NCBI GenBank assembly: GCA_964365955.1
Contig: CAYISA010000004.1
Coordinates: 2,939-66,938 of the forward strand
DNA length: 64,000 nucleotides
Reading direction: 5' to 3'
From: an uncultured Candidatus Saccharibacteria bacterium
GTDB taxonomy: Bacteria; Patescibacteriota; Minisyncoccia; UBA6257; GWB1-50-10
A program made the position numbers and the translations under genes. Shown piece after piece: positions 214 through 15,965 of the stretch (the stretch's first letter is position 1; each line of letters opens with the position of its first letter). The notes under the pieces are model-generated. The model was given only the letters and a program-made list of their open reading frames with translations. It was not told the origin of the DNA and searched no databases.

Positions 214-1929
214 ATGATTAATCTTCCGCCGGCAAAATTGGGGGAGATCCTTGTGAATGCCGGCATTGTGACGGAGAACGTGTTCAACACGGCCGTGGAG
301 GAGTCCCAGCGCCGCAGGCAGAATATTGTGGATATTCTAATTGCGCAAAACCTTATCACGAAGGATTATTTTAACGCGCTCGTCGCGCAGACGCTCGGTG
401 TAGAGCGGATCAATTTAGGGAATGTAAAAATAAACGAGGAATTCTTGCGGCTGTTGCCGGAAGAAGTGGCAAAACGCCGCCGCGTGATTGTGTTCGGGCG
501 CGACGAGAACGGCAGTTATCAAGTGGCGATGGAAGACCCCACTGATCTTGAGGCGATTGATTTCCTTTCGCTACGCTTGAAAGGCAAGGTGCGACCGTAT
601 CTTACGAGCGATGAAGATTTAAATCGCGGGTTTTCCCTTTATGAAAAGAAACTCACCTACGATTTCAAGAAGATTATCGAAGAAAGCGTACAACAATCAT
701 TGCGCTCACGCGTGAAAGGGGATATCGAAAAAGAAGCCGCCGATATCCCGATTGTGGCGATTGTGGACAATCTTTTTGCGTACGGCTACTCTTCGCGCGC
801 GTCGGATATTCATTTCGAAGTGTTGGATGATGCCGTGTTGGTGCGGTACCGCATCGACGGCGTGCTCCATGAAATTATCCGCATGCCGAAGGAAATCCTT
901 GCCGCCATCGTTGCGCGCATTAAACTGCTTTCGAATCTCCGCGTGGATGAACACGCGAAGCCCCAAGACGGAAGGTTCCGCCATAAAATCGCGGATTCCA
1001 TCATGGACGTGCGCGTTTCCGTGATCCCCACGTTCCATGGAGAAAAAATCGCGTTGCGCTTACTTGCCGCTTCCCAAAAACCGCTTTCACTCTCCGACAT
1101 CGGTTTGATGGACGAGGATTTAAAGATTGTCGAGGACGCGACCAATAAATCGTTCGGAATGGTTATTGCAAGCGGTCCTACGGGATCGGGGAAAACCACT
1201 ACGCTTTATGCGCTCATGAACATTTTGAACCGTCCCGAAGTGAACATCGTCACAATCGAAGACCCGATTGAGTACGATCTTCGATACCTGAACCAAGTAC
1301 AGGTGAATGTGGCGGCGGGCGTCACCTTTGCAAGCGGTTTACGTTCTCTGCTGCGCCAAGATCCAAATGTGGTGATGGTCGGAGAAGTTCGCGACAATGA
1401 AACAGCGAATATTGCGGTGCAGGCCGCTCTCACGGGCCACCTGGTGCTTTCAAGTTTGCATACCAACGATGCGCCCACCGCCATTCCGCGTCTTATGGAC
1501 ATGGGCATTCCTCCGTTTTTGGTTTCCGCCGTTTTAAATACGATTGTTGCACAGCGCTTGGTGCGTAGCATCCATAAAGATTGTGTGGAATCGAGCATCC
1601 CCGATGCGGACACGGAAGAGCAAATTCGCCGCGAGATAAAAACAGCGGGATTGAATGTGGAAAAAGTCCGGATTCCAACGACCCTGTATCGCGGGCATGG
1701 ATGCGCGGCATGCAATTACACCGGATACTTCGGGCGCGTCGGAATTTTTGAGGTGTTGCGGATTACCGAAGCGGTGCGGAAGGTGATTACCAGCTCCGAT
1801 TTTAATTTAGACATACTCCGTTCTGCCGCGCGGATGGAGGGCATGACGACGATGTTTGAAGACGGACTCCATAAAGTGGAGCAGGGGATCACGACCCTCG
1901 AGGAGGTCTTTCGCGTGATTCGCGAGTAA
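214..1929 (+). CDS. pilB: Type IV pilus assembly ATPase PilB (GspE family)
   Basis: 571 aa. Walker A GPTGSGKTTT, GspE-type N-terminal domain, Asp/His boxes, C-terminal CxxC (GHGCAACNYTG) typical of PilB/GspE. Confidence 0.85.
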   Translation: MINLPPAKLGEILVNAGIVTENVFNTAVEESQRRRQNIVDILIAQNLITKDYFNALVAQTLGVERINLGNVKINEEFLRLLPEEVAKRRRVIVFGRDENGSYQVAMEDPTDLEAIDFLSLRLKGKVRPYLTSDEDLNRGFSLYEKKLTYDFKKIIEESVQQSLRSRVKGDIEKEAADIPIVAIVDNLFAYGYSSRASDIHFEVLDDAVLVRYRIDGVLHEIIRMPKEILAAIVARIKLLSNLRVDEHAKPQDGRFRHKIADSIMDVRVSVIPTFHGEKIALRLLAASQKPLSLSDIGLMDEDLKIVEDATNKSFGMVIASGPTGSGKTTTLYALMNILNRPEVNIVTIEDPIEYDLRYLNQVQVNVAAGVTFASGLRSLLRQDPNVVMVGEVRDNETANIAVQAALTGHLVLSSLHTNDAPTAIPRLMDMGIPPFLVSAVLNTIVAQRLVRSIHKDCVESSIPDADTEEQIRREIKTAGLNVEKVRIPTTLYRGHGCAACNYTGYFGRVGIFEVLRITEAVRKVITSSDFNLDILRSAARMEGMTTMFEDGLHKVEQGITTLEEVFRVIRE

Positions 1930-1958
1930 CAGCGAACAGTATACAATGAACTAGAAAC

Positions 1959-3161
1959 ATGGAATTTCACTACATAGCATCACAGCCGGATGGAAAAATC
2001 GTGGAGAACGACACGGACGCCTCGAATATTGCCGAGGTGCTCACGTTTATTGCCTCAAAGAATTGGAAACCGGTAAGTGTGCGTCCCAAAGAAACGCATA
2101 AGCGGTTGCGCTTGTTTCGAGGAGCGGTGAATTTAAGCGATCAGATCTTTGTAACAAAATATCTTGCGCTGATGCTCAAGATCGGAACGGGGCTACTCGA
2201 AGCGATCAATATTCTAATCGCAGACTTCGACAAATTGGCGATTAAAGAGATTCTCATGGAGGTACGTTCTAATCTGGAGCAAGGGAAACCCTTTCATTTG
2301 ACGTTCCAAAAGTATCCGCAGATTTTCAGTGCCGTTACGGTGAATCTCATCAAAGCGGGAGAAGCGTCCGGGAATTTGGAACGTGTGTTTGAAGATGTGA
2401 CGGTTTCGCTCACGAAGCAGAAAGATTTGCACGATCAGCTTAAAAGCGCGCTCATCTATCCGATTATTTTGATTGTGGGCGCGATCGGTATTATGGCGCT
2501 TATTATCACATTCGCACTTCCGAAAGTCGCAAAAGTATTTTTGGATGGCGGATTTCAGCCGCCGCCGTTTTCGAGCGCCGTATTTTCTATTGGGTTCTTT
2601 TTCCGTGATTTCGGCCCGTATTTTTTGGGCGGATTGGTGTTCATAGCCATTGCGTCCGTGTATCTGATGCGTTCGTCGGTGATCTTCCGTAAATTCGTGA
2701 GCAATCTGTTTTCGGAAGTGCCGCTCATAAAGGATATCGTGAAAAAAATTGCGCTCCAACGGTTCGCCCGAACCCTTGCATCGTTGGTGCGCGCGGGCCT
2801 TCCGATTACCGAGGCGCTTGAAATCACCGCGGATGCGACCGGAAATCCTGCGCTCAAAGAGAGTCTGATTCGTATCGCGCGCGAAGGGTTGGCAAAGGGC
2901 CTTACGTTTGGCGATGCGTTCAAACGCGAACCGTTTTTCCCGCAAACCGTGGTGAACTTGATCAGCATCTCGGAAAAAGCGGGGCATATCGAGGAGGTGC
3001 TCGAAACGCTTAGCGATTTTTACGTGAAAGAGATCGACAGTTCCGTGAAATCGTTGGTATCATTCCTGGAACCCATTCTTCTTTTATTCATCGGCGTGGC
3101 GATTGCCGCCATTGCGCTTGCAGTCATCATCCCGATCTACCAGTTGACGACGCAGTTCTGA
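1959..3161 (+). CDS. pilC: Type IV pilus platform protein PilC (GspF family)
   Basis: 400 aa polytopic membrane protein with duplicated GspF-type cytoplasmic domains, immediately after pilB. Confidence 0.8.
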   Translation: MEFHYIASQPDGKIVENDTDASNIAEVLTFIASKNWKPVSVRPKETHKRLRLFRGAVNLSDQIFVTKYLALMLKIGTGLLEAINILIADFDKLAIKEILMEVRSNLEQGKPFHLTFQKYPQIFSAVTVNLIKAGEASGNLERVFEDVTVSLTKQKDLHDQLKSALIYPIILIVGAIGIMALIITFALPKVAKVFLDGGFQPPPFSSAVFSIGFFFRDFGPYFLGGLVFIAIASVYLMRSSVIFRKFVSNLFSEVPLIKDIVKKIALQRFARTLASLVRAGLPITEALEITADATGNPALKESLIRIAREGLAKGLTFGDAFKREPFFPQTVVNLISISEKAGHIEEVLETLSDFYVKEIDSSVKSLVSFLEPILLLFIGVAIAAIALAVIIPIYQLTTQF

Positions 3162-3168
3162 CGCGCTT

Positions 3169-3651
3169 ATGATCCGAATGAAACGTTTTCGCGATCGCCC
3201 GGGGTTCACATTGGTAGAACTCTTGGTGGTCGTTGCCATCATGGCGGTTATCGCAACCGTCGGCTTTTTGGGACTCGCGAATTACCGTTCAGGCAAGAAT
3301 CTGGATTTTACGATAAACGAAATCGCCGCTGCTCTACGTGCTACGCAGGAACGCGCCATCACGCAGGAAAACGGCAAAGCGTGGGGAATCCGTTTTACCA
3401 ACTCCACAAGCGGCGTCCAAAGTTATACGGTTTTTAGCGGAACGGTGTTCGCACCCTCGGGGGTAGATAAAACCTATGGGCTTCGTCGCGGAACCCGCTT
3501 CACCGATCCGGTCGCAAGCTCCACAAAAGATCTTTTTTTTCAGGCGATATCCGGCAAACCGTCCGCATATTTTTCGATAACGCTGAAAGGAGATACCACG
3601 CAGATAAAAAACATTATTGTCGCCACGTCGGGGGTGATTTCGATTCAATGA
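3169..3651 (+). CDS. Type IV prepilin (major pilin candidate)
   Basis: N-terminal class III signal: ...RPG|FTLVELLVVVAIMAVIA with Glu at +5 and a hydrophobic helix. 160 aa. Confidence 0.7.
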   Translation: MIRMKRFRDRPGFTLVELLVVVAIMAVIATVGFLGLANYRSGKNLDFTINEIAAALRATQERAITQENGKAWGIRFTNSTSGVQSYTVFSGTVFAPSGVDKTYGLRRGTRFTDPVASSTKDLFFQAISGKPSAYFSITLKGDTTQIKNIIVATSGVISIQ

Positions 3652-3655
3652 AATC

Positions 3656-4972
3656 ATGAAATCCCCACGCGCATCCGTCGCAGGCCAATCTCTTTTGGAG
3701 GTCCTTATCGGGCTTTCGATCGGAGCGATCATCATCGGAGCGGCAGTATTTACGATTGGCGGAATGTTGCGTTCAACCACCGTGACACAGCAGAACCGAT
3801 CCGCTTCACTTATCACGCAGGATCTTTTGGATCGCGCCCGCTCCTTTTTTTCGGAAAGTTGGCGGAATTTTTCCGCAGTTTCAACAAGCTCCGCAAATCA
3901 TTACTTCTTGAATGCTTCAGGGAGCACGTTTCTAGCCGTGAAGGGTGAAGAGGGCGTTTGGGATAACGACGTTTCGTCGGGGCTAGTAGGACAGTGGAAA
4001 TTGGACGAAGATGCATCCGTCGCAACGTCTACCTACGACGGATCGGGGAACGGAAATGTGGGTGCCTTGCAGTATGGCGTTGGGACAACAACACTTCCGG
4101 CGCGTCTTGGTTTGCCCGCGTGCAGAATATCGAATTGTCTACAGTTCAATGGGGCACAGCAGGTGGGTCTTAATTTGGGGAACTGGGTCCGCGTTCCATA
4201 CTCTTCAGCTTTTGATTTAACCGGATCTGCGATTACGCTTTCTGTGTGGGTGCGTCCGGTTTTGAATCCTCCGGTGGGGCAGTACGGCGGTATTCTCAGC
4301 CACAGTGGAGTCATCGCAGGGTATCGTTTACTCCATGCAACAGGCGGAGGATTATTGTTTCAGATCGGGAGTCCCACCACTTATAATCTAAATTCATTAA
4401 AAACACTTGTTCTGAATCAATGGAATTATATCGCCGCTGTTTTGGAAAACGGTGCGATGAAAATCTATTTGAACGGTGTGTTGGACGCGCAAGGCGCAGG
4501 ACCCGCCGCGCTTCTTCCGTCGGCTGAATATTTTTATATCGGAGTCACCCCCGATTATTCTTCGTTGAATGGCTTGATTGATGATGCACGTGTGTATGGC
4601 CGCGCGCTTTCGGCAGACGAGATCGTAAAACTTTCAAAAGCCAGTCCATTTCGGCGGTATTTTTATGTGGATGATGCGTGTCGTACCAGTGATGCCTCGA
4701 GTACACTTGCGGGCGTTGCCCCCTGCGGAGGGATGATCACAGACCCCGCCACGAAAGGAATCAGCGTGGTCACGGAGTGGGTGGTCGGCGGAAAAACCAG
4801 TCAATACACGTTTATGGATTATCTGACGCGCTGGCAGAACGGAACATTCTGGCAAAACGACTGGTCGGGCGGTCCGGCATCCGACACGCCGCTCCCGCAG
4901 CCCGGTAATACCTTCGCATCTTCTACCAATCTGCAGTTCGCGAGCGGGACGTTACGGCTCAAGAATCTTTAA
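3656..4972 (+). CDS. Prepilin-type minor pilin with LamG/concanavalin-A-like lectin domain
   Basis: N-terminus AG|QSLLEVLIGLSIGAIII (prepilin motif, E at +5). Central region carries LamG-like signatures (...NGLIDDARVYGRALSADEI...). 438 aa. Confidence 0.6.
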   Translation: MKSPRASVAGQSLLEVLIGLSIGAIIIGAAVFTIGGMLRSTTVTQQNRSASLITQDLLDRARSFFSESWRNFSAVSTSSANHYFLNASGSTFLAVKGEEGVWDNDVSSGLVGQWKLDEDASVATSTYDGSGNGNVGALQYGVGTTTLPARLGLPACRISNCLQFNGAQQVGLNLGNWVRVPYSSAFDLTGSAITLSVWVRPVLNPPVGQYGGILSHSGVIAGYRLLHATGGGLLFQIGSPTTYNLNSLKTLVLNQWNYIAAVLENGAMKIYLNGVLDAQGAGPAALLPSAEYFYIGVTPDYSSLNGLIDDARVYGRALSADEIVKLSKASPFRRYFYVDDACRTSDASSTLAGVAPCGGMITDPATKGISVVTEWVVGGKTSQYTFMDYLTRWQNGTFWQNDWSGGPASDTPLPQPGNTFASSTNLQFASGTLRLKNL

Positions 4973-4975
4973 TTT

Positions 4976-6505
4976 TTATTTCAGAACTCTCACAAAACTT
5001 CCTGGTGGAACCTTGTCTTTATCTTGCGGCAACACATAATGTATGTTTTTTGTGGCCTGTTCCGATGGTAAAAACGTATCGGTTAAAAACATCACCGTTT
5101 GCGTAGGCATGGGGAGCCCGCGCACATCCGTGCCTTTTGCCTCCACAATAATATACTTTTGTGTCTCGCGCGGCAGAATATTCAGTTCGTCGGCGAGTTT
5201 AACGTCAGATTGGATAAATGCATCCGCCGTATTTGGATTTTTACCCCACGTAATAAAGTAGCTCCGGAACGGTTCCAAAATCAAAACGACAAACAACACC
5301 ATTGTCCCAACGCGAAGCAGGACGGTGCCATAGGCAAATTGCGAAAGCACTTTTTTGATATGTTCATAAAGCCAGACGCTTCCGATTGCCGCAAGGATCA
5401 TGACTGCGGGGATCATAAGGATAGAACGGAGCGCATGAGGGAGTCCTTCGTTTGAAACCACAACCGGAAGCGCCGCGACAATAAGCCACGAAACACTAAT
5501 AAAAAGAGGAAATTCAAACTCATTTCTTTCTCTCCATTTTTTAGATACGCATCGCACGGCAAGAACGATCCCTAAAAGAAAGAAAACGCCGACCGGGAAA
5601 AAGAGGAGCGGCCGACCCGCAATATTGTGCCGCCAGTTGCCGTCTCCATAAACATTGAACGAGCCGAGTGTGATTCCGATATTCTTTGCCAGGTCGATCA
5701 CGGGCGTAGGAGAGCTAAAAATGGAAATCTGGCTTGTGCGCCCCAGAAAATCCTGCGGATATTCCGCAAAAAAGATAAGGAGCGGAGTGAGCGCAAGAAC
5801 AAATCCCAAAGAAAACCAGGTCAGGAATTTCAAAAAAATCCGCCACGGATATTTTTTGAAAAGAATATAAGCGGCAACAGCGAATAAAAGGAGCGGCGTT
5901 GCGCGGTAGGCGATATAGGAATGGAACCCGAGCCCGTAAACCAGACCAGCAAAAAATGGCAGAAGTCGCACGGGTTGTTTTTTGGTTTCAGCGGACATTT
6001 TACGGAGCGCCATCAGGATAAAAAATAATCCCCATGTCAGAAAAAACGGGGCCATAATTGCGCGAAATCCGATGCGGGAAAAATTAATGTGCCAGAAGGA
6101 TGTGGCGGTAAAAAAAGCCGCAAAAAGTGGTATCCAGGGATGAGTTTGTTTTTTTGAAAATCGCAAGAGCTCTCGCGTCAAAAAATAAACGCCCAGTACT
6201 GTAAGTACTCCGAATAATGCGCTCGGAACCCGGAGCATCCAGGGTTCAATGTTCCCGGTCTCCCGCATAAAGAAGTTCAGAAAGTAGGCCTGAATGTTGA
6301 TAAACAGTCCTTCTCTGCCGTTGTTTTCGGGATAGAAAACTTTCGGTTCCGTAGCGCCGTGGAGCACCTCAAGCGCGTTATTTCCATTCATCGCCTCGTC
6401 GGGATAGAGTCCGGGCGGAAATGCGGAAAGTTGATAGAAACGAAAAAAGGCCGCAATAAGCACGATCCCTATGACGATCCATGTCGTTTTGAATGATGGC
6501 GCCAT
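4976..6505 (-). CDS. GT-C fold glycosyltransferase (ArnT/PMT-like, polyprenyl-phosphate-sugar dependent)
   Basis: 509 aa with many TM helices. First extracytoplasmic loop has the YPDEAMNG acidic motif typical of the ArnT/PMT_2 family. Confidence 0.65.
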   Translation of the reverse strand: MAPSFKTTWIVIGIVLIAAFFRFYQLSAFPPGLYPDEAMNGNNALEVLHGATEPKVFYPENNGREGLFINIQAYFLNFFMRETGNIEPWMLRVPSALFGVLTVLGVYFLTRELLRFSKKQTHPWIPLFAAFFTATSFWHINFSRIGFRAIMAPFFLTWGLFFILMALRKMSAETKKQPVRLLPFFAGLVYGLGFHSYIAYRATPLLLFAVAAYILFKKYPWRIFLKFLTWFSLGFVLALTPLLIFFAEYPQDFLGRTSQISIFSSPTPVIDLAKNIGITLGSFNVYGDGNWRHNIAGRPLLFFPVGVFFLLGIVLAVRCVSKKWRERNEFEFPLFISVSWLIVAALPVVVSNEGLPHALRSILMIPAVMILAAIGSVWLYEHIKKVLSQFAYGTVLLRVGTMVLFVVLILEPFRSYFITWGKNPNTADAFIQSDVKLADELNILPRETQKYIIVEAKGTDVRGLPMPTQTVMFLTDTFLPSEQATKNIHYVLPQDKDKVPPGSFVRVLK

Positions 6506-6535
6506 TCTTGTATAATTTAATTATACAAGAATCCC

Positions 6536-6949
6536 ATGCCTAATGTCGTTAATTTTGGACCTGACTTTGAACGGAGTCTCACGCGCATCAAGGAAGACAT
6601 TGCGGAGCAGAAATCTATCCCCGGGAATGAGCAGATGGAAGAACGCGAGCTGATGAGACAATCGCTTGAGAAAATGGCCGCCGCGGTTGCGGTTCCCCCC
6701 GCGCAAGAACCCCCCGCTTCGTCCGCGCCACAGGCGGACGCGTCTTCGCTTCCCGCGTACCTTTCGAATGCCTCCGCCGATCCGCGTGTAAAAGAGGAAG
6801 TCCAGCGATTGGTGAATCTTGCGTTTAGCGATCACATCGAAAAGGCGATTTCTGAAGCAAAAAAACACCCCCCGTTTGTGGTGGACGCCCTGCACGACGC
6901 GCTGGTGGATAAATTAATTCCGGAAATGAAACGCCGGGGCATGCTTTAG
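6536..6949 (+). CDS. Hypothetical protein
   Basis: 137 aa ORF in an intergenic position, Pro/Ala-rich centre, no recognisable domain. Confidence 0.4.
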   Translation: MPNVVNFGPDFERSLTRIKEDIAEQKSIPGNEQMEERELMRQSLEKMAAAVAVPPAQEPPASSAPQADASSLPAYLSNASADPRVKEEVQRLVNLAFSDHIEKAISEAKKHPPFVVDALHDALVDKLIPEMKRRGML

Positions 6950-6964
6950 CCGTTTTTTATCTTC

Positions 6965-9337
6965 ATGCTTTCCACACTTTTTTTCGGCGTGATTTTAGGA
7001 GGCATCTTTGCGGGTGCGTATGCGTGGTTTCGGCGCGCGCAATATCAAAAACTTCTGGAAGGATTGCAGGTGCGTTTGATTTTAGTGCGCCTTCCGCTCG
7101 GAGGAAAAGAAGGCCGCGATCTCATGAAAGAAATCGCATTGACCGAGCAACTGATTGCTGCGCTTGCGGCGTTTAAAAAACCGTTCGTATTCGAAGTGGC
7201 GGTACCGTATGTCGGAGAAGAGATTCATTTTTATATTTCCGTTTCGGAACAGTATGTGGACGCCGCTGTCCGCCAGGTACAGTCCATGTGGGACGATGCC
7301 GATATTCGCAAGGTGGAGGATTACAATATTTTCAATTATCAGGGTTACACGACGGGTGCCTGGCTGAAAGAAAAAGAAAAGTTCGTGTTGCCGATTCGCA
7401 CCTATCAGGAACTCATGAGTGACACTTTTTCAAGTATCTTGGGTGGTTTCGCGCAGACAAAAGAGGTGGGCGAAGGCGCGGCACTGCAGATTGTCGTCCA
7501 GTCCGCAAGCGCGAAGGCAAAAAAAGAAATTGTTGCCTCACTGGGCTTTTTGAAAAAAGGCGGGAAATTAAAAGAAGTGCTTCATGCGGAAAAAATTGGT
7601 GCCTCGGACGTAGTTTCTGCGGCTCTGGCGGGGAAAAAATCGGGGAATGTTCCGGGACCGCAAGAGTCGAAAGTGATCGACGAAATGGCCGTGAAAGCAA
7701 TCGAGACAAAACTGGCAAAACCACTTTTTGACGTTAATGTTCGCATTTTGACCTCTGCGCCGAGTCAGCTACAGGCGGAGTCCTTGCTGGATGGAATTTC
7801 CGCCGGATTTTCGCAGTTCGGCACGACAGGGAGGAACGAGTTTCAGATGACAAAACCGCGCGCGATCAAGAATCTTGTCCGTGCGTTTTCATTTCGCGCG
7901 TTCGACGAAAAACAGAAAATGACGCTTACCAGCGAAGAGCTGGCGAGTATTTTCCATTTTCCAACCGTGTTTACGTCTACTCCGAAAATCAAATATCTCA
8001 AAGCCAAGGAAGCGGCGCCGCCACGCAATCTTCCGACATTCGGGACCCTTCTCGGCGAGAGTTCTTTCCGCGGCGAGTCAAAACCGATTTTCTTGACCGA
8101 CGAAGATCGCCGCCGCCATCTTTACGTTATCGGTCAGACCGGAACCGGCAAGACGACGCTGTTGAAGGGAATGATGCTCGACGACATCCGAAAAGGAAAA
8201 GGCATCGGCGTTATCGATCCGCACGGAGAGTTTGCCGAGTTCGCGCTCGCGAACATTCCGCCCGAACGCGCCAAAGACGTTATCGTGTTCGACCCCGCGG
8301 ATTTTGAGCGGCCGGTGGGACTCAACATGCTCGAATATCATTTTGATCGTCCGGAGGAAAAAACATTTATTGTGAATGACATGCTGGGCATTTTGGACAA
8401 GCTCTATGATTTGCGGCAGACGGGGGGCCCCATGTTCGAGCAGTATATGAGGAATGCTCTCTTGCTGCTCATGGAAGACGCGCCGAATCAGCCTGCGTCG
8501 CTTGTGGAGCTGCCGCGGATTTTTACCGACAGCGCATGGCGCGCAAAAAAACTGGCACGCATCACCAACCCTATTGTGATCGATTTTTGGGAGAAAGAAG
8601 CGACCAAAGCGGGCGGAGAAGCGTCACTTGCGAATATCACGCCTTATGTCACCTCGAAATTCAGCAATTTTATTGCAAATGATTATATGCGCCCGATTAT
8701 CGGCCAGCCGAAATCTGCATTCAATTTTCGCGAAATCATGGATCAGGGGAAAATCCTGATTGTAAGTTTGTCGAAAGGAAAGATCGGCGATGTGAATATG
8801 GGATTACTTGGGATGATTGTGATCTCAAAACTCCTTTTTGCTGCTCTTTCGCGTGTGGATATTCCAAACGAATCGTCCCGAAAAGATTTTTATCTTTACA
8901 TCGACGAGTTCCAGAATTTCGCGACCGATTCCATTTCCGTGATTCTTTCAGAGGCGCGTAAATACCGATTGTCGCTTACCATTGCCCATCAATTCATCGC
9001 CCAGCTTCCCGAAAAAATTCGCGACGCGGTATTCGGGAACGTCGGCTCCGCAATCGCCTTGCGCGTGGGACCCCAGGACGCGGAATTTTTGACCAAACAA
9101 TTTACGCCGGTGTTTAACGAAAGCGATTTATTGAATATCGACAACCTGAACGCGCACGCGCGCATTTTGGTCGACGGCATGGTCGCACCGCCGTTTAATA
9201 TTCGCGTAAATACCGCTGCGTTCTCCGCAAAAGGAGACGTACAAATGGCCGAGCGGCTGCGCAATCTCTCACGCCTTACCTATGGACGTGATCGGGGCGA
9301 AGTTGAAGAAGAAATTCGTCGCAGATTAAGAGAATAA
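6965..9337 (+). CDS. Type IV secretion coupling-protein-like ATPase (VirD4/TraD/TraG-TrwB family, membrane anchored)
   Basis: 790 aa. N-terminal TM helix, Walker A GQTGTGKTT near aa 390, Walker B-like YLYIDEFQNFA, C-terminal TraD/TraG-like region (AHQFIAQLPEKIRDAVFGNVGS). Confidence 0.6.
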   Translation: MLSTLFFGVILGGIFAGAYAWFRRAQYQKLLEGLQVRLILVRLPLGGKEGRDLMKEIALTEQLIAALAAFKKPFVFEVAVPYVGEEIHFYISVSEQYVDAAVRQVQSMWDDADIRKVEDYNIFNYQGYTTGAWLKEKEKFVLPIRTYQELMSDTFSSILGGFAQTKEVGEGAALQIVVQSASAKAKKEIVASLGFLKKGGKLKEVLHAEKIGASDVVSAALAGKKSGNVPGPQESKVIDEMAVKAIETKLAKPLFDVNVRILTSAPSQLQAESLLDGISAGFSQFGTTGRNEFQMTKPRAIKNLVRAFSFRAFDEKQKMTLTSEELASIFHFPTVFTSTPKIKYLKAKEAAPPRNLPTFGTLLGESSFRGESKPIFLTDEDRRRHLYVIGQTGTGKTTLLKGMMLDDIRKGKGIGVIDPHGEFAEFALANIPPERAKDVIVFDPADFERPVGLNMLEYHFDRPEEKTFIVNDMLGILDKLYDLRQTGGPMFEQYMRNALLLLMEDAPNQPASLVELPRIFTDSAWRAKKLARITNPIVIDFWEKEATKAGGEASLANITPYVTSKFSNFIANDYMRPIIGQPKSAFNFREIMDQGKILIVSLSKGKIGDVNMGLLGMIVISKLLFAALSRVDIPNESSRKDFYLYIDEFQNFATDSISVILSEARKYRLSLTIAHQFIAQLPEKIRDAVFGNVGSAIALRVGPQDAEFLTKQFTPVFNESDLLNIDNLNAHARILVDGMVAPPFNIRVNTAAFSAKGDVQMAERLRNLSRLTYGRDRGEVEEEIRRRLRE

Positions 9338-9342
9338 AACAT

Positions 9343-9987
9343 ATGACAAAAAAAGATTATAAATTGGTCACGCTTATCGGTTTTTTGGTCGGTTGGCTGG
9401 TGCTTCCGGTTATTGCAAATATAGGGAAGCGCTATGGAGTGACGGTCAGCATCCCGCTGGGCGCCGCGTCCGTTCTTGGTTTTTCAGCTTTTGCGCCTCT
9501 CGCGCTTTGGGTGCTGCATCTGCTTTCAAAAAAAATTCCGGTGTTTCTGCAGTTCGGAAAATTCGCGGCCGTGGGGACGCTGAACACGCTTTTGAATTTT
9601 GCGGTGTTGAACACGCTGATTTTTATGACGGATATTTCGGCGGGGTGGACCTATACCGGGTTCACCGTCATCGCCTTTTTTATAGCGACCACCAATAGTT
9701 ATTTTTGGAATAAGTTTTGGACGTTTCAGAGCCGTATTCCGCTGGGGTGGGGTGAGTATGCGCGGTTCGCCCTTTTTACCGTCGGCGGAGTGATTTTGAA
9801 TTCGGGGGTTGCATCGCTCATTGTGAACGGAATAGGGGCTCCCCAGGGAGTTGCGCCGGAGTTATGGGCGAATGTGGGCGCCCTGGGCGGCGTTGCCGTG
9901 TCTTTTCTCTGGAATTTTTTGACCTATCGCCGTATCGTGTTCCGTGCCAGCGGCGGTTCCCCGGAAGCGGCAAATCCCGTACAATAA
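9343..9987 (+). CDS. GtrA family membrane protein (polyprenyl-phosphate-sugar flippase-like)
   Basis: 214 aa, 4+ TM helices, GtrA-like signature FAAVGTLNTLLNFAVLNTLIF. Confidence 0.7.
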   Translation: MTKKDYKLVTLIGFLVGWLVLPVIANIGKRYGVTVSIPLGAASVLGFSAFAPLALWVLHLLSKKIPVFLQFGKFAAVGTLNTLLNFAVLNTLIFMTDISAGWTYTGFTVIAFFIATTNSYFWNKFWTFQSRIPLGWGEYARFALFTVGGVILNSGVASLIVNGIGAPQGVAPELWANVGALGGVAVSFLWNFLTYRRIVFRASGGSPEAANPVQ

Positions 9988-9994
9988 TAGAATA

Positions 9995-10795
9995 ATGAAA
10001 CCGTTTCTTTCCGTCATTATCCCCGCCTACAACGAGTCCCAGCGTCTTCCGCAGACGCTTGTTGATGTGGATAAAAAATTGAGCGAGGTAGAATATTCCT
10101 CGGAAGTGCTGGTGGTAAGCGACGGTTCCAAAGATGCGACGGCCGAAATTGTTCGGCGATTTGCGGTTCACATGAAAAATCTGAAGCTGATTGATAATAA
10201 GGAAAATCACGGGAAGGGGTGGGTGGTGCGACAGGGGATGATGGCTGCAAAAGGGAACTGGCGACTTTTTATGGATGCGGATAATTCCACAACTGTGGAT
10301 CAGTTCAATCTCATGCTCCCGTTCTTTAAAGAAGGATACGATGTGGTGTTCGGATCACGCGCCGTTTCCGGGGCAAAACTGGTGCCACCCCAACCGTGGT
10401 ATCGGCAGATTTTAGGGCGGGGGGGGAACGTGGTTATTCAACTCTTTGCACTTCCGGGCGTGCGTGATTCGCAGTGTGGATTCAAATGTTTTTCGGAAAA
10501 TGCCGCGCCGCGCGTTTTCGGGCTTGCTCGCGTTGACCGGTGGGGGTTCGACGTAGAAGCATTGGCGCTTGCAAAAGTGCTGGGCTACCGCGCAAAAGAA
10601 ATGCCTGTCACGTGGGTGAACGACACGCGTTCCACCGTGGGGTTGAAAGCGTATCTTTCGACGCTGTGGGATGTAGGGCGCATCTGGTGGTGGTTAAAAC
10701 GCGGCAGTTATCCGTTAAACTCGAACTCTTTAAAGCCCGAACCGCCGCGCACGGAAGAAATCGATTCAAATAGTTCAACCGGCGCATTTGAATAA
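9995..10795 (+). CDS. GT2 family glycosyltransferase (GtrB/DPM1-like polyprenyl-phosphate hexosyltransferase)
   Basis: N-terminal LSVIIPAYNES, DGSKD and DAD motifs of GT-A fold GT2. Start moved to the MKPFLS Met to avoid overlapping gtrA (track ORF starts at 9944). Confidence 0.75.
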   Translation: MKPFLSVIIPAYNESQRLPQTLVDVDKKLSEVEYSSEVLVVSDGSKDATAEIVRRFAVHMKNLKLIDNKENHGKGWVVRQGMMAAKGNWRLFMDADNSTTVDQFNLMLPFFKEGYDVVFGSRAVSGAKLVPPQPWYRQILGRGGNVVIQLFALPGVRDSQCGFKCFSENAAPRVFGLARVDRWGFDVEALALAKVLGYRAKEMPVTWVNDTRSTVGLKAYLSTLWDVGRIWWWLKRGSYPLNSNSLKPEPPRTEEIDSNSSTGAFE

Positions 10796-10797
10796 TT

Positions 10798-11814
10798 ATG
10801 GTTTCAAAAAAACATTCTGAACTGCGACAAGATCTGGTTTCGGGGGACTGGATTTTATTGGCTCCAGGCCGGCTTCATGGGAGTCCTGATTTTTCTCTTC
10901 ATAAAGAGAAACGCACAGCAACGCCAAAAAATTCCTGTATTTTCGAAACCCCTTTGGATCACGTGAGCGAAGAGATTCTTCTTGGATATGAAGATGGGCG
11001 GAGCGTGAAGGGGTGGGGAAAGTATCGCCTGCTGATCCTTGAGAATAAATTTCCGGCCGTCCGGCATCCGGAAGGGCGGGTAACCGAGTTGAAATACGGC
11101 CCGTTTCGTGTGGTGCCGGGCGTGGGGCACCATGATCTTCTGATCACCCGCGATCATACAAAAAATTTCCCACGACTGTCGCCAGCCCACGCGCGCGAAG
11201 TGTTCAAGGCATTCGCGGAGCGGTACCGGATGGTGGGCATGGGAAAAGAAATCGCGTACGTTTCCATGTTTCATAACTGGGGTCCGCGGGCCGGGGCTTC
11301 CGTGTATCATCCGCATTATCAGATGATGAGCATTCCGGTGGTTCCGCCGGACGTGGGACACTCGCTTGCCGGATCGGGGCGGTATTTTAAAAAACATCGT
11401 ACGTGTGTCCACTGCGAGATGATTGCATGGGAGCGAAAAATGAAGGAGCGCGTGATCTTTGAAACGGAGCGCGCAATCGCGTTCGCTCCTTTTGTTTCAC
11501 GCAATCCGTTTGAGGCGCGCATTTTCCCGAAACGGCATCTTCCGTATTTTGAAGATTCCGGGGAGGCCGACCGCGATGCGGTTTCCGATATTTTGCAAAA
11601 AATCCTAGAGCGGGTCACGAAAAATATGCGCGACCCGGATTATAATTTTTTCATCCATACAGCGCCGGTACACAACAAAAGCGAGTACAGGCATTACCAC
11701 TGGCACGTCGAAGTATATCCAAAGTTCAACATACGCGCCGGTTTTGAGTTCGGAACGGGAATCGATATGAACATGATCGACCCCGCCTTAGCAGCCAAGA
11801 TTTTGCGAAGATAG
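10798..11814 (+). CDS. galT: Galactose-1-phosphate uridylyltransferase-like (GalT/HIT superfamily)
   Basis: 338 aa. HPHYQ active-site motif (HxHxQ), CVHCEM zinc-site cysteines, second half-domain (HTAPVHNKSEYRHYHWHVEVYPK). Confidence 0.7.
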   Translation: MVSKKHSELRQDLVSGDWILLAPGRLHGSPDFSLHKEKRTATPKNSCIFETPLDHVSEEILLGYEDGRSVKGWGKYRLLILENKFPAVRHPEGRVTELKYGPFRVVPGVGHHDLLITRDHTKNFPRLSPAHAREVFKAFAERYRMVGMGKEIAYVSMFHNWGPRAGASVYHPHYQMMSIPVVPPDVGHSLAGSGRYFKKHRTCVHCEMIAWERKMKERVIFETERAIAFAPFVSRNPFEARIFPKRHLPYFEDSGEADRDAVSDILQKILERVTKNMRDPDYNFFIHTAPVHNKSEYRHYHWHVEVYPKFNIRAGFEFGTGIDMNMIDPALAAKILRR

Positions 11815-11866
11815 CTGGGGGAGAATAGAGCATAAAAGCCCTTTGTATTTGAAGCCCCCACAAGGC

Positions 11867-11894
11867 TTGACTTTTTATAACGGTATGCTATAAT
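11867..11894 (+). promoter_or_regulatory. Sigma70-like promoter of DGR target gene
   Basis: TTGACT (11867-11872), 16-nt spacer, TATAAT (11889-11894). AGGAGA RBS 8 nt upstream of the ATG at 11980. Confidence 0.5.
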
Positions 11895-11979
11895 TCAAGC
11901 AGAAACCTTACCAACGTCTACTTGGAGCCCCTGACCAAATGATGGGGTGGAGAGTAGACACTATACAGGAGATACAACA

Positions 11980-12570
11980 ATGGCAAAGTCCGATATGGTT
12001 CGCGGAATGCTTTTCGGAGTCGAGTTCCTTACAAACGTCGTGAAAGAAGCAAGAAAGCTTGGCAGAACCGATGAGGAAATTCACGAATGGATGAAAACAG
12101 AATCTGATGGGGCAAAGAAAACCGCACAACTCATCGTTGGCACTGCGAAAAACGTCCTTCGTATTCTCGCAAATCTCTCCCTTGCCGACCGTATCGCCCG
12201 TGGGAAGTACGACTGGGTAAACCCCGACATCACAAAAGGGCATTTCCCCACAAACGTGCCTGTAGACTACTCTCCAGACCACAAACTCTATCACTTTGAT
12301 CGTCCCATCTCCTCCGAAGAGGCGATCAAATGGATGGAAAAGGATGGATTCCGCCCGGGGAACGGAGCAGAGCTTCTTGCCTTTGGGGAAACCTTCCGCG
12401 ATGAGCAGAAGGAGTATCCTATCGTAGCTCTTGGTTCGGTCTGGCAGTACTTGGATGGCCACCGCCGCGTGCTGGTGCTCTGCTCGCATGCTTCGGGGCG
12501 CGGGCTGGGTCTGCTTGGGTTTGAGGGTGGCTGGGATGGCAACTATCGTTTCCTTGCGGTGCGCAAGTAA
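11980..12570 (+). CDS. DGR target protein with C-terminal variable region (C-type-lectin/FGE-like fold predicted)
   Basis: Track ORF 11947..12570. The ATG at 11980 has the strong RBS. The last ~47 codons are the VR. C-terminus ...GGWDGNYRFLAVRK resembles the ...GGSWNN...GFRLxR end of CLec-fold DGR targets. Confidence 0.75.
   Translation: MAKSDMVRGMLFGVEFLTNVVKEARKLGRTDEEIHEWMKTESDGAKKTAQLIVGTAKNVLRILANLSLADRIARGKYDWVNPDITKGHFPTNVPVDYSPDHKLYHFDRPISSEEAIKWMEKDGFRPGNGAELLAFGETFRDEQKEYPIVALGSVWQYLDGHRRVLVLCSHASGRGLGLLGFEGGWDGNYRFLAVRK
12427..12568 (+). repeat. DGR variable repeat (VR)
   Basis: 142-bp near-copy of 12889-13030. It differs at 24 positions, every one an A in the TR. Confidence 0.9.
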
Positions 12571-12626
12571 CTTGGACTTGGGACTTTGATGCTTAGATTT
12601 TTAATCTCTTAGTCCCTTAGATTTTT

Positions 12627-12660
12627 GACCCGTTTCGATTTTTGAAACGGGTCTTTTGTT
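12627..12660 (+). terminator. Hairpin plus U-tract downstream of VR (intrinsic terminator and/or DGR target-recognition hairpin)
   Basis: gacccgtttc-gattttt-gaaacgggtc followed by ttttgtt, about 57 nt after the target-gene stop. Confidence 0.55.
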
Positions 12661-12888
12661 ATAATAATTATGGATAGTAGGTTGGAATGCCTGCGGCTAC
12701 GGTTTCAGGCGACCGAATTCCGAAATTTCTTTGTGCAGAGTGGGTGCGGCTACGGTTTCGCCCAGCGCCACGTGGAAGTTTCTAACCCATAAAGATACTT
12801 GGTGTAGAGTATTAAGGAATTTTTTAGATTCCGAATACGATTCAATCCCAAGAATATTCAAGGGATGGTGGAACGGAAGATACTTTGC

Positions 12889-13030
12889 ACACTTGGTTCG
12901 GTCTGGCAGAACTTGAATGGCAACCGCAACGTGCTGGTGCTCAACTCGAATGATTCGAGGCGCAAGCTGAATCTGAATAGGTTTGAGAATGACTGGAATG
13001 GCAACTATCGTTTCCTTGCGGTGCGAAAGT
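12889..13030 (+). repeat. DGR template repeat (TR)
   Basis: Invariant partner of the VR, A-rich at codon positions (AAC/AAT-rich when translated). Not a protein gene (track ORF 12865..13194 is read-through). Confidence 0.9.
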
Positions 13031-13042
13031 CTCTTTATGTGT

Positions 13043-13450
13043 TCATCCCGCCCTTGGCGGGATTTCTTTCAATGATAACTGTTTTATCCAGCCGCCAAGC
13101 ATTCTTCCAATTTCATCGAGTCGTTCTGAAATCGCTATATATTTTTTACTATCAAATGACTTTGTTTCCCACGCGATTTGAAGGAAGAATTTAGCGAGAT
13201 CAAGTTTTGCTCCGGCGGCACGCACAAAAGAAATGCGGTTTTCGGGTATAGCGTAACTTGCTGAAAAGAGAAGCTCCGTGGTATCAAGTAGGTAAACATC
13301 AATTTTCTCGCCAAGTGTGTACCGTGCGGATTTTTGGAGATGTGGCATCATTTCACGCCACAATTTGTATGCCGCCACTAGTTTTTGGATTATCGATTGA
13401 TTATTTCGTCGGGGGGGGGTGTTCCGGGGTTCTTTAGTATCATGTTTCAA
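13043..13450 (-). CDS. avd: Avd-like accessory variability determinant (four-helix-bundle protein)
   Basis: 135 aa. C-terminal helix ISERLDEIGRMLGGWIKQL and upstream AKFFLQIAWETK match the Avd/four-helix-bundle family pattern. Abuts the TR and is encoded on the opposite strand. Confidence 0.7.
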   Translation of the reverse strand: MKHDTKEPRNTPPRRNNQSIIQKLVAAYKLWREMMPHLQKSARYTLGEKIDVYLLDTTELLFSASYAIPENRISFVRAAGAKLDLAKFFLQIAWETKSFDSKKYIAISERLDEIGRMLGGWIKQLSLKEIPPRAG

Positions 13451-14413
13451 AGAATAACAAGTATAGAAAATTTAGTCGAGGCGTGGGAGGAATTTATAAA
13501 AGGAAAGCGGCACAAAAGAGATGTGCAGGGGTTTTTGCTGCATTTAATGGACAACATTCTTGCGCTTCACCGCGATCTTATGGAGCATGCGTACCGCCAC
13601 GGCGGGTACGCCGCATTTGCTGTTTCTGATCCCAAGCCGCGCAGTATTCATAAGGCTCCGGTTCGTGACAGGCTACTCCACCACGCGGTACATCGCGTGC
13701 TTTATCCCCCTATGAATAAACGGTTTATTGCAGACTCATTTTCTTGTCGAACTGGCAAAGGAACGCATGCCGCTCTCGGCCGCTTTCAGAGGTTTTTCTA
13801 TACAGTAAGTAACAACAATACCAAACAATGCTGGGTTTTGAAGTGCGACATTCGAAGATTTTTTGCGAGCGTTCATCATGAAACACTTTTCAACATTTTA
13901 AAGAAAACCATCCATGATTCTGATGCACTTTGGCTTTTACGCCAGATTATTGGCAGTTTTTATATCGGTGAATATGGCAGGGGACTTCCCCTTGGCAATC
14001 TTACCTCGCAACTCTTTGCGAATGTATATATGAACGAATTTGATCGGTATGTAAAGCACACGTTGAAAATAAAACACTATATTCGATATGCAGATGATTT
14101 TGTCATTTTTTCTAACGATCGCGAAGAACTGGGACAGATTATCAAACCCATTAGAGAATTTTTATGCGACGCGCTTTCCTTACAACTCCATGAAGATAAA
14201 GTTGTGATAGAGACCATCGGTTCCGGTATTGATTTTTTGGGATGGGTGCATTTTCCGGATCATAGGGTGTTGCGCACATCAACAAAACGAAGGATGTTAA
14301 GGAAATTGCAGGCAAGGGGAAATAATACTGCCACCATCGCATCTTATTTAGGACTTTTGAAGCATGGGAACACATGTAAACTCGAGGAGGAAATTTCGAA
14401 TAGAAATTGGTAG
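13442..14413 (+). CDS. DGR-type reverse transcriptase
   Basis: RT motifs present: motif 4 LGNLTSQ (DGR hallmark [I/L]GxxxSQ rather than the group II QGxxxSP) and YADDFVIF. About 320 aa, no maturase or endonuclease domain. Start placed at the Met of MFQRITS (track start 13385). Confidence 0.85.
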   Translation: MFQRITSIENLVEAWEEFIKGKRHKRDVQGFLLHLMDNILALHRDLMEHAYRHGGYAAFAVSDPKPRSIHKAPVRDRLLHHAVHRVLYPPMNKRFIADSFSCRTGKGTHAALGRFQRFFYTVSNNNTKQCWVLKCDIRRFFASVHHETLFNILKKTIHDSDALWLLRQIIGSFYIGEYGRGLPLGNLTSQLFANVYMNEFDRYVKHTLKIKHYIRYADDFVIFSNDREELGQIIKPIREFLCDALSLQLHEDKVVIETIGSGIDFLGWVHFPDHRVLRTSTKRRMLRKLQARGNNTATIASYLGLLKHGNTCKLEEEISNRNW

Positions 14414-14422
14414 TATAAATAT

Positions 14423-15187
14423 GTGAGACAAAAGCTTCTTATCGCTAATTGGAAGTCGAATCCCGCGAACTTGCGCGCGGCGGTTGGTTTGGCGCACGCG
14501 GAAGATCTGAAAAGTGTTGTTATCGCCCCGCCCTTTTCTTTTTTGGGTGAAGTTGGAAAAGTATTGCGGAGTGCGGCGTTGGGGGCACAGGATGCGTTTT
14601 GGGAAAATGAGGGGCCCTATACCGGTGAAGAAGGGCCCACCGCGTTAAAACATTTGGGGGTGCGGCATGTGATTCTTGGCCACTCTGAACGGCGGCATTT
14701 CTTAAAAGAAACAGATATAATGGTCGCGCAGAAAACAAAACGGGTTCTAACCGAAAAATTGATTCCCGTTTGTTGCGTGGGGGAGAGTTTTTCCGTGCGG
14801 CGCAAAGGAGAAAAGGCGGCATGGCACTTTGTAGAAAGGCAGGTTTCCACAATTCTGAAGCCATTGCACATTTCAAAATTCGCACACCATCCGCATCTCA
14901 TCTTTGCCTATGAACCCGTCTGGGCGATCAGTACCAGTGGGATGGGGCTTGTAGCTACGCCGGAAAATGCCGCCGTCATGATTTCTAAAATTAAAAGCTT
15001 TGCGAAACGAAAAATACCACGCGTCACAATCGAGTGTTTTTACGGTGGTTCCGTGGATTCAAAAAATATCGCCGCTTTTCTTGAATGCCCGGAAATTGAT
15101 GGGGCGCTCGTTGGGGGCGCCAGCCTGCGTCCTACGGAATTCCGCCGAATGGCTGTTATAGCCGGGAAAATCGGTTCAAAAAAATAA
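14423..15187 (+). CDS. tpiA: Triosephosphate isomerase
   Basis: IANWKSN, catalytic His (LGHSERR) and the AYEPVWAI(S)T loop motif. 254 aa. Confidence 0.85.
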   Translation: MRQKLLIANWKSNPANLRAAVGLAHAEDLKSVVIAPPFSFLGEVGKVLRSAALGAQDAFWENEGPYTGEEGPTALKHLGVRHVILGHSERRHFLKETDIMVAQKTKRVLTEKLIPVCCVGESFSVRRKGEKAAWHFVERQVSTILKPLHISKFAHHPHLIFAYEPVWAISTSGMGLVATPENAAVMISKIKSFAKRKIPRVTIECFYGGSVDSKNIAAFLECPEIDGALVGGASLRPTEFRRMAVIAGKIGSKK

Positions 15188-15191
15188 TTCC

Positions 15192-15965
15192 GTGTCGCGC
15201 ACATCCAAAAAAATTCTGTATGGGGTTATCTACGCGTTCATCTTCTTTTTTATTTTGCGGGGAATCTACGGTTGGGCTACCGCCGTTTATCCGACGTGTT
15301 TTGACGGGATTTCAAACCAAGGTGAAGAGAGGGCGGACTGCGGCGGTCCCTGCACGGCATGCGTGGGAATTGTTTTTGATCCGCTCCGCGTGGAGGGAGC
15401 GGTGAATTTGTTTACGGCAGTCGAGGGACGCGGCGTGCTCTTTGCAAAAGTTTCAAATCCGAATACGGGTTATTCCGCGCGACCGTTCGGATATGTGTTC
15501 CGTGTTTTTAATACCGACGGGCAGTTTGTGAGAGACGTGGAAGGGAGAACAACACTTGCGGCTTCCGCGCAGAAATATATTTTTGCGGCATTTGAGACCG
15601 CAAAAAAACCTTCCACATTCGGGTCCGCGTCGCTTGAAATAAAAGATTCGGCATGGAGCGCGCTGGGTGATATTGTGCGACCAGTCCTTTCATTACCGCA
15701 GAATGTGAAGACCATAATAGACGGGAACACGATCCGCGTGGAAGGAACGCTTAAAAATCAAGGGTTGATGGACGCGCCGGAAGTGGAAATTATAGCGCTC
15801 CTGCACGATCGGTCGGGTTTCCACGATCCGTTTTTTGCAGGCAAAGCCGTGGTGGGGATTTCAAGCATGAGTGAAAATAAATTTTCCGTGTTGTTTCCTT
15901 CGGATAGAGTGCTTGCGGACAAAGTTGATCAGGCGCTTTCGGAAGTGTTCGTAAACATAGAATGA
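15192..15965 (+). CDS. Hypothetical membrane-anchored/extracytoplasmic protein (Cys-rich N-terminal segment)
   Basis: N-terminal TM helix, then CFDG...CGGPCTAC cluster. No known domain. Sits between tpiA and the SEDS gene. Confidence 0.45.
   Translation: MSRTSKKILYGVIYAFIFFFILRGIYGWATAVYPTCFDGISNQGEERADCGGPCTACVGIVFDPLRVEGAVNLFTAVEGRGVLFAKVSNPNTGYSARPFGYVFRVFNTDGQFVRDVEGRTTLAASAQKYIFAAFETAKKPSTFGSASLEIKDSAWSALGDIVRPVLSLPQNVKTIIDGNTIRVEGTLKNQGLMDAPEVEIIALLHDRSGFHDPFFAGKAVVGISSMSENKFSVLFPSDRVLADKVDQALSEVFVNIE

Follow-up and report, generated by a model that had tools for sequence, protein, structure and literature searches.

Layout of the Locus

The DNA considered here, which we call the window, is a 64,000-nucleotide stretch of contig CAYISA010000004.1 from an uncultured bacterium of the Patescibacteria, and our subject is a glycosyltransferase locus near its start. 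As Table 1 shows, the gene for a predicted membrane glycosyltransferase of the GT-C fold class (GT-C) lies between genes of a type IV pilus system and a divergent plus-strand operon, which encodes the small protein orf137, an ATPase resembling type IV coupling proteins (T4CPs), a GtrA-family membrane protein, a family 2 glycosyltransferase (GT2) and a GalT-like enzyme. The operon is tightly packed, with gaps of 15, 5, 7 and 2 nt between its genes, and the sequence 3' of the GalT-like gene contains a terminator-like site as well as a strong site resembling a promoter (11852-11894). The remainder of the window is core genome, with genes for triosephosphate isomerase (TIM), FtsW, YceG, RpoB/C, MraW, FtsI, GyrB, NusG, DnaE and others.

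An initial annotation had read the interval from the GT-C gene to the GalT-like gene as a "classic" three-component glycosylation module beside pilin genes. All of the open reading frames (ORFs) that it listed were recovered here, and the GT2, GtrA and GT-C genes are indeed all present, together with a nucleotide-sugar enzyme. They are not contiguous, however; orf137 and the 790-residue ATPase, which lie inside the same interval and had been passed over, intervene. Homologues are found in Patescibacteria of the Paceibacteria/Parcubacteria type (Wolfe-, Colwell- and Liptonbacteria, among others), and because there are more than 4000 for the GT-C (at ∼50% identity) and more than 5600 for the GT2, these are real genes and not chance ORFs. 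Gene neighborhoods were surveyed from the GT-C side in 80 loci of GTDB species representatives, with flanks of up to 10 kb, and from the GT2 side in 80 metagenome loci.

Table 1. Features of the glycosyltransferase locus and of the retroelement next to it (window coordinates)
Feature	Position	Strand	Evidence or remark
PilB-type type IV pilus assembly ATPase	214-1929	+	PF00437 T2SSE 1.4e-120, MshEN (Pfam)
PilC-type platform protein	1959-3161	+	PF00482 T2SSF 3.3e-53
Prepilin, 160 aa, GspH/ComGD-type minor-pilin-like	3169-3651	+	N_methyl 7.6e-8; GspH 7e-4
Prepilin, 438 aa, LamG/ConA-like domain	3656-4972	+	Laminin_G_3 (LamG_3) 1.4e-25; N_methyl 8e-4
GT-C-fold integral-membrane glycosyltransferase (predicted), 509 aa	4976-6505	-	AlphaFold2 fold, homologues, motifs
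Perfect palindrome with two TATAAT boxes	6504-6532	.	Sequence, promoter scan
orf137, small cytoplasmic protein, first gene of the divergent operon	6536-6949	+	Homologues adjacent to GT-C
VirD4/TraD-like (T4CP-type) P-loop ATPase, 790 aa, N-terminal membrane anchor	6965-9337	+	Pfam, NCBIfam, PDB
GtrA/DPMS-TM family membrane protein, 214 aa	9343-9987	+	PF04138 2e-20, residues 73-200
GT2 without transmembrane segment, Dol-P-Man/Dol-P-Glc synthase-like	9995-10795	+	PF00535 3.9e-26; Pyrococcus furiosus DPMS (5mlz)
GalT-family HIT nucleotidyltransferase/phosphorylase, 338 aa, last operon gene	10798-11814	+	HIT, GalP_UDP_tr_C, DUF4921; 1z84
Retroelement target gene orf207	11947-12570	+	Variable repeat 12430-12573
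Retroelement template repeat	12892-13035		144 nt, 83% identical to variable repeat
Retroelement reverse transcriptase	13385-14413		PF00078 6e-24

The GT-C Transferase Belongs to a Patescibacterial Clade

Since the window protein has no direct match in Pfam, NCBIfam or the PDB sequences, its assignment as a GT-C comes from the families that its relatives match and from its predicted fold. Among 43 sampled relatives, Pfam identifies PMT_2 (PF13231) in 34, PMT (PF02366) in 15 and STT3 in 4, while the NCBIfam matches are weak and scattered (archaeo_STT3 in 19, Agl23 in 11, PrMnsylTfPmt in 4 and ArnT in 3). Many of the homologues are named "glycosyltransferase family 39 protein" in the databases. 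When the profile of the 43 sequences was run against the sequences of the PDB, no solved structure was matched, neither a protein mannosyltransferase (PMT) nor ArnT.

An AlphaFold2 model built on the family alignment (pLDDT 89.2, pTM 0.91) has about 11 transmembrane (TM) helices and an extracytoplasmic C-terminal domain of ∼85 residues with mixed α/β structure. In a Foldseek search of the PDB, the top 31 matches of this model are all membrane proteins of the GT-C fold, with E-values of 1.8e-8 for STT3/AglB, 8.4e-7 for ArnT and 7.4e-5 for Pmt4 (probability 1.0 for these three groups). The TM-scores for STT3, ArnT and Pmt4 are nearly equal (0.48-0.56), and those for AftA, AftB and Emb are lower (0.32-0.45). 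The sequence YPDEAMNG, at residues 34-41, is invariant in the 43 homologues and places D36-E37, the sole acidic pair in the first 120 residues, within the first outer loop. Other invariant motifs of the family are YPENNGREG (residue 58), WHINFSRIGFRAIMAP (138), GDxNWRHN (287) and SNEGLPHALR (351). The position of the loop motif and the predicted fold thus bear out the GT-C transferase of the initial annotation, and these results lead us to place the protein among the true GT-Cs, in the structural class of ArnT, PMT and STT3.

Placement within that class is looser. Neither Foldseek nor NCBIfam groups the protein with the lipid-A or arabinan transferases, a grouping that had been named as a possible objection to the module. 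ArnT identity (GT83) was rejected, as model NF009784 does not match the window protein and matches only 3 of the 43 relatives (best 7.8e-5), and the fold is no closer to ArnT than to STT3 or Pmt4. Identity with an arabinan transferase was rejected on the weaker fold matches to AftA, AftB and Emb given above. The family is a distinct clade of Patescibacteria, distantly like PMT_2 and GT39 proteins, and is not firmly a lipid-A, arabinan, PMT or oligosaccharyltransferase (OST) family. A neighbor-joining tree of 81 GT-C sequences is star-like and poorly resolved, with most of the loci that have a window-like gene block in a few neighboring deep branches. Our literature searches found no Patescibacteria papers on this family.

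The fold comparison does raise the alternative that the enzyme is an OST of the AglB/PglB/STT3 kind, which would attach to proteins a glycan already assembled on a pyrophosphate-linked lipid. STT3 and AglB have the best Foldseek E-values, and the weak archaeo_STT3 and Pfam STT3 matches among the relatives point the same way. However, the WWDxG signature, even in the relaxed form WW[DN]xG, occurs in 0/43 members, the outer C-terminal domain is short for an STT3-type enzyme, the TM-scores do not set STT3 apart from ArnT and Pmt4, and matches to PMT_2 are far more common than those to STT3. In addition, no initiating phosphoglycosyltransferase or Wzx-type flippase is seen among the genes from 214 to 18056. 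STT3-type identity was rejected, and we regard an OST function as highly improbable.

A second GT-C paralogue of the PMT_2 type, of ∼580-720 residues, occurs near the 509-residue type in 15 of the 80 loci; the 64-kb window contains no copy of it. It lies 2-4 kb downstream of the GT-C gene or adjoins it in L005, L012, L017, L022, L024, L031, L034, L049 and L062, and is also found in L165.

The GT2, GtrA and GalT-like Proteins

The GT2 was said to be DPM1/GtrB-like, and the similarity searches agree: its best relative in the PDB is the dolichyl-phosphate mannose synthase (DPMS) of P. furiosus (5mlz, 7.5e-16), aligned over the entire catalytic domain (residues 5-211), with GtrB and ArnC next in rank. 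A DAD motif is present at residues 94-96, and TM prediction finds no TM segment. Full-length NCBIfam alignments are obtained with the dolichyl-phosphate (Dol-P)-hexose transferase model and with the model for PpgS (2.1e-9), neither of which is reached at its curated cut-off. An identical protein from a metagenome-assembled genome (MAG) at NCBI and many relatives at JGI carry the homology-based name dolichyl-phosphate β-glucosyltransferase. Taken together, the sequence comparisons suggest that the GT2 is a polyprenyl-phosphate hexosyltransferase.

The GtrA protein matches its family, which Pfam names "GtrA/DPMS transmembrane domain", above the curated cut-off, in line with the GtrA flippase-like protein of the initial annotation. 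Natural fusions of the two proteins exist in both orders in metagenomic relatives: GT2-GtrA, as in the Pyrococcus DPMS, in L121 (865-2013), and GtrA-GT2 in L126 (9560-10744). Because of these fusions we take GtrA and GT2 to be functionally linked, and read the pair as a split polyprenyl-phosphate hexose synthase of the DPMS type, in which GtrA would be the membrane subunit of the GT2, its flippase partner, or both.

With TIM and a phosphoglycerate kinase (PGK) nearby, glucosyl-3-phosphoglycerate synthase was also considered as an identity for the GT2. It was rejected, since that match covers only residues 5-104, as against the full-length alignments with DPMS, the Dol-P-hexose transferases and PpgS.

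The last protein of the operon belongs to the GalT/HIT family, as had been proposed, and carries the HxHxQ motif of nucleotidyl transfer as HPHYQ (residues 171-175). It appears, however, to be closer to the type of Arabidopsis At5g18200 than to the GalT of the Leloir pathway: the score with TIGR00209 is 92.1 bits against a cut-off of 102.1, and the best PDB relative is At5g18200 itself (1z84, 4.8e-50, over the full length), which has been characterized as an ADP-glucose phosphorylase.

Gene Neighborhoods in Relatives

The most conserved neighbor of the GT-C gene is the T4CP-like ATPase. A homologue of it lies within 1.6 kb upstream of the GT-C gene, and divergent from it, in 48 of the 63 loci with enough upstream DNA, and an orf137 homologue adjoins the GT-C gene, again divergently, in 45 of 75. 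The neighbors that come next in frequency are far rarer: with the window counted in, 30 of 81 loci have the GalT-like gene, 23 have YchF, 19 PGK and 17 FtsE.

The ATPase itself gives weak matches throughout, in Pfam to DUF87, TrwB_AAD_bind, T4SS-DNA_transf and TraG-D_C, in NCBIfam to TraD/VirD4, and in the PDB to TrwB and DotL in the P-loop region; its orthologues carry DUF8128 and DUF87. No genes of a type IV secretion system (T4SS) were seen among its neighbors, either among the Pfam-scanned genes of the window (214 to 11814) or in the relatives' loci, L161-L164 included. Patescibacteria have been found to encode 5,713 T4CP homologues of the VirD4 type, only 148 of them near virB4, and exaptation was suggested (PMC12102498). 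With T4CP-like domains and no T4SS neighbors, the 790-residue ATPase fits these "orphan" T4CPs. For orf137 there is no match in Pfam or NCBIfam, and no TM segment is predicted.

On the GT2 side, the GalT-like gene is directly downstream of the GT2 gene in 16 of the 52 metagenome loci with enough sequence, and this adjacency becomes the majority among loci in which GT2 identity is at least ∼44%. The usual context of the GT2 is ribosomal operon-SecY-Adk-Map-GT2-GalT...TIM. In L102 and L108, which represent two other lineages, the GT2 gene directly adjoins a different GT-C, of the 625-residue PMT_2-like type.

The full block of the window, in the order pilins, GT-C (opposite strand), orf137-T4CP-GtrA-GT2-GalT-TIM-...-FtsW-YceG-RpoB, recurs in 8 of the 80 GTDB species loci and in four metagenomic relatives (L161-L164). 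Of the latter, L161 and L162 are the closest that were examined, with 56-59% GT-C identity to the window, and L163 and L164 were found through their GT2. The GT-C, GtrA and GT2 genes are thus co-located in some relatives, as the initial annotation expected of a module, but are unlinked in most. What the region contains is two gene sets, each conserved on its own (the GT-C and orf137/T4CP pair, and the GT2 and GalT pair), together with GtrA, and one lineage has joined them.

A Putative Divergent Promoter Region

The 30-nt gap between the start codons of GT-C and orf137 is filled by a perfect palindrome of 29 nt (13 + 3 + 13), ATTCTTGTATAAT-tta-ATTATACAAGAAT, which contains two back-to-back TATAAT −10 boxes. 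A promoter scan gives matches on both strands, at 6489-6516(+) and 6549-6520(-). A similar element, TATAAT(N0-3)ATTATA, is located at the same position in L002, L003, L010, L020, L041, L052, L073, L161 and L162. Allowing one mismatch per hexamer, it is present in 38 of the 55 loci that have the ATPase upstream; the corresponding figures are 6 of 22 for loci that lack the ATPase there and 17% for random windows. Judged by consensus alone, the palindrome may be a compact bidirectional promoter, an operator, or both. A shared promoter region in the window lineage would co-express the GT-C with orf137-T4CP-GtrA-GT2-GalT, and no other local observation speaks as strongly for a working pathway as this predicted shared promoter.

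The same observations can be turned toward a different partner. The GT-C may work mainly with orf137 and the T4CP-like ATPase in an envelope process, for instance the assembly or modification of a translocation apparatus, and have nothing to do with GtrA-GT2-GalT; the GT2-GalT pair would then belong to cytoplasmic sugar metabolism or work for some other GT-C, and would have entered the operon by hitch-hiking specific to the lineage. The frequencies of the divergent ATPase and orf137, set beside those of the far rarer other neighbors, speak for this, as do the conserved back-to-back −10 palindrome, the abundance of orphan T4CPs in the phylum with the exaptation raised for them (PMC12102498), and the location of most GT2-GalT pairs elsewhere, after SecY-Adk-Map. 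On the other hand, no known mechanism couples a GT-C to a T4CP, and where a genome is reduced and highly syntenic, two genes can be kept as a divergent pair without sharing a function. Moreover, a GT-C depends on a lipid-linked donor, for which the GT2 of the window is the sole synthase in view. We consider this explanation unlikely as the principal one, and it and a polyprenyl-phosphate pathway are not mutually exclusive.

A bolder form of the idea has GT-C, the T4CP-like ATPase and orf137 forming an unrecognized envelope machine, for example one in which glycosylation governs the assembly or gating of a route for DNA or protein translocation. The donor-sugar genes GtrA-GT2-GalT and the type IV pilus operon would have been recruited to the locus in the window lineage. 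We give this little credence; if true, it would explain the thousands of patescibacterial T4CP genes that lie far from any T4SS.

A Proposed Pathway for Extracytoplasmic Glycosylation

The reading that we favor, with a probability of roughly 0.55, is that the locus encodes an ordinary three-component pathway for extracytoplasmic glycosylation through a polyprenyl-phosphate sugar in a Patescibacterium of the Paceibacteria type, and not a dedicated pilin cassette. In such a pathway the GalT/HIT enzyme would interconvert or regenerate a nucleoside diphosphate (NDP)-hexose, probably NDP-glucose. The soluble GT2, like DPMS and ALG5 in its catalytic domain, would dock on GtrA as a "split" version of the fused Pyrococcus DPMS and move the hexose to undecaprenyl or another polyprenyl phosphate at the cytoplasmic face; here it is the homology that is observed, and the activity and sugar are what it suggests. 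The lipid-linked sugar would then be flipped, possibly with the aid of GtrA. Finally the GT-C, by way of the outer-face loop with D36-E37 that its motif and predicted fold display, would pass the sugar to an acceptor in the envelope. The model is built on the predicted fold, motifs, homologies, fusions and synteny, and from these we deduce its sugar and lipid, the flipping step, the supply of this GT-C by this GT2, and the donor and acceptor of the GT-C.

Several observations weigh against this reading. In the species loci, GtrA lies within 10 kb of the GT-C gene in 10/80 and GT2 in 9/80; from the metagenome side, a GT-C of the window type is within 10 kb of the GT2 gene in 2/80, and GtrA is adjacent or fused to GT2 in only 5/80. 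Two unrelated genes, orf137 and the ATPase, separate the GT-C from GtrA in the window itself. Both pairs sit in strongly syntenic housekeeping regions (ribosomal operon-SecY-Adk-Map, and TIM-FtsW-YceG-RpoB), and their adjacency may for that reason be inherited gene order with no functional meaning. The window GT-C protein has no match in Pfam (even at E ≤ 10), in NCBIfam or, with phmmer, among the PDB sequences, and the likely identity of the sugar comes from homology-based annotation.

As to the acceptor, the GT-C gene adjoins a pilin gene in one lineage only, and in other lineages has cell-wall, cell-division and housekeeping genes around it, which argues that a general envelope acceptor (a wall polymer, or a protein that is secreted or displayed at the surface) is more likely than a pilin.

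The Neighboring Pilin Genes

The initial annotation had pointed to the two prepilin genes beside the GT-C gene, on the opposite strand, as reminiscent of pilin glycosylation of the TfpW type. These genes are there: they converge on the GT-C gene, with 3 nt between the stop codons. The 160-residue prepilin has an N_methyl motif, NCBIfam matches to TIGR02532 and, weakly, gspH, and one N-terminal TM segment, and the 438-residue LamG prepilin is a candidate adhesive minor pilin, judging from its domains. However, a pilin gene directly adjoins the GT-C gene in only 8 of 66 loci, all of one lineage, where it is always convergent and always LamG minor-pilin-like; the count was made by homology and with a loose motif that covers the GQSL[IL]E type. 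In other lineages the downstream position is taken by pyruvate kinase, YchF, Ddl or the second, 625-residue PMT_2-type GT-C.

Pilin O-glycosylation, in which the GT-C would modify the neighboring type IV pilins with the lipid-linked sugar from GtrA-GT2 much as TfpW does in Pseudomonas aeruginosa group IV, draws on more than the two adjacent genes. The convergent arrangement PilB-PilC-pilin-LamG pilin is kept next to the GT-C gene in the 8 GTDB species loci and in L162-L164 despite a GT-C identity of ∼50%, and glycosylation has been predicted, though not shown, for the pilins of Saccharibacteria (PMC11623550). Against it, the convergent orientation means that pilin and GT-C genes are not co-transcribed, the neighbor is a LamG minor-pilin-like protein and not a major pilin, and the GT-C family is conserved far beyond the loci with an adjoining pilin gene. 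The hallmarks of TfpW are missing as well, and we regard this function as distinctly unlikely.

TfpW has 646 residues, with a periplasmic tetratricopeptide repeat (TPR) domain at its C-terminus, and carries a DDX motif as well as a proline motif like that of Emb; its gene follows pilA immediately and in the same orientation, and its donor is decaprenyl-phosphate-D-arabinofuranose (D-Araf), made via DprE1/E2 (10.1101/2020.04.19.049825). The locus of the window resembles that system in having a GT-C gene next to pilin genes, and the TfpW pathway, too, involves a GtrA-like protein (10.1101/2020.04.19.049825). In contrast, the GT-C of the window has 509 residues, ends in the ∼85-residue domain with no TPR match in Pfam, lacks both the DDX motif and the Emb-like proline motif, and is encoded convergently after a LamG pilin. 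No genes for making the D-Araf donor (DPPR synthase, DprE1, DprE2) are present among the Pfam-scanned genes from 214 to 11814, where the donor enzyme is the DPMS-like GT2. The likeness to TfpW thus failed on every defining feature that could be tested here, namely strand and position, TPR domain and donor genes.

In L162, the stretch on the far side of PilB from the GT-C gene holds three more prepilin genes and one for a response regulator (14417-16679). The start of the window cuts off the corresponding region, so the pilus operon of the window is probably longer than the part that is visible.

Comparison with Known Systems

Three-component systems of the proposed kind are well known from O-antigen glucosylation by the Gtr proteins of Shigella phages and from teichoic-acid glycosylation by CsbB-GtcA-YfhO in Bacillus and Listeria. 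The window shares with them a GT2 polyprenyl-phosphate synthase, a GtrA-family protein and a GT-C transferase at the outer face, and would follow the same logic. It differs in that its GT2 is without the C-terminal TM helices that GtrB and CsbB have, its genes are non-contiguous with the GT-C divergent, their co-location is confined to one lineage, and a GalT/HIT enzyme is the constant companion of the GT2. P. furiosus DPMS and eukaryotic Dol-P-Glc synthase of the ALG5 type are further counterparts, and the alignment with the former takes in the catalytic domain including the DAD metal site; unlike the Pyrococcus enzyme, the window has the catalytic and TM parts as separate genes, in the order GtrA then GT2, and fused forms are seen only in L121 and L126.

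Actinobacteria offer a second set of parallels. The mycobacterial galactosamine pathway comprises PpgS (Rv3631), the GtrA-like Rv3632 and the GT-C Rv3779, and actinobacterial O-mannosylation pairs Ppm1 with a PMT. As in these systems, a synthase that is split or has no TM segments, together with a small GtrA-type protein, would feed a GT-C, and this GT-C has its DE motif where PMTs do, in the first outer loop. However, the curated cut-offs for these families are not reached, and the host is a Patescibacterium with a different envelope. A GT39 PMT would take polyprenyl-phosphate mannose as donor and Ser/Thr residues of proteins as acceptors; for the adjacent GT2, the homology-based name in the databases is that of a glucosyltransferase and not of a mannosyltransferase.

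The kind of pathway is therefore familiar, with reviews available (PMC8035078, PMC11127046), and public MAGs already carry annotations for its genes; what is peculiar to the locus is the split DPMS, the constant GalT-like companion, the phylum-specific GT-C clade and the interleaved T4CP genes. Beyond the synteny facts and the pairing of the GT-C with an orphan T4CP, the analysis adds little to what is known of such systems. Glycosylation in Patescibacteria has, on the other hand, received almost no study, and the surface structures of these bacteria are at the center of their epibiotic lifestyle. For this setting the analysis defines a minimal pathway open to testing, in which a split synthase like DPMS works with a GalT-like enzyme and a GT-C specific to the phylum, identifies the gene pairs that are truly conserved, and sets aside the attractive but weakly founded inference that the pilins are glycosylated.

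Other Features of the Window

A complete diversity-generating retroelement (DGR) occupies window positions 11947-14413, between the GalT-like gene and TIM (Table 1), with a strong promoter-like site ahead of it at 11867-11894. Of the 24 mismatches between its two repeats, 22 are positions at which an A of the template is another base in the variable repeat. The element looks like an insertion, since L161 and L162 have TIM directly after the GalT-like gene. At the far end of the window, an ORF of more than 2483 residues (56533-63984) runs past the window end; it begins with a signal-like hydrophobic segment at its N-terminus, and its product is presumably a giant surface protein.

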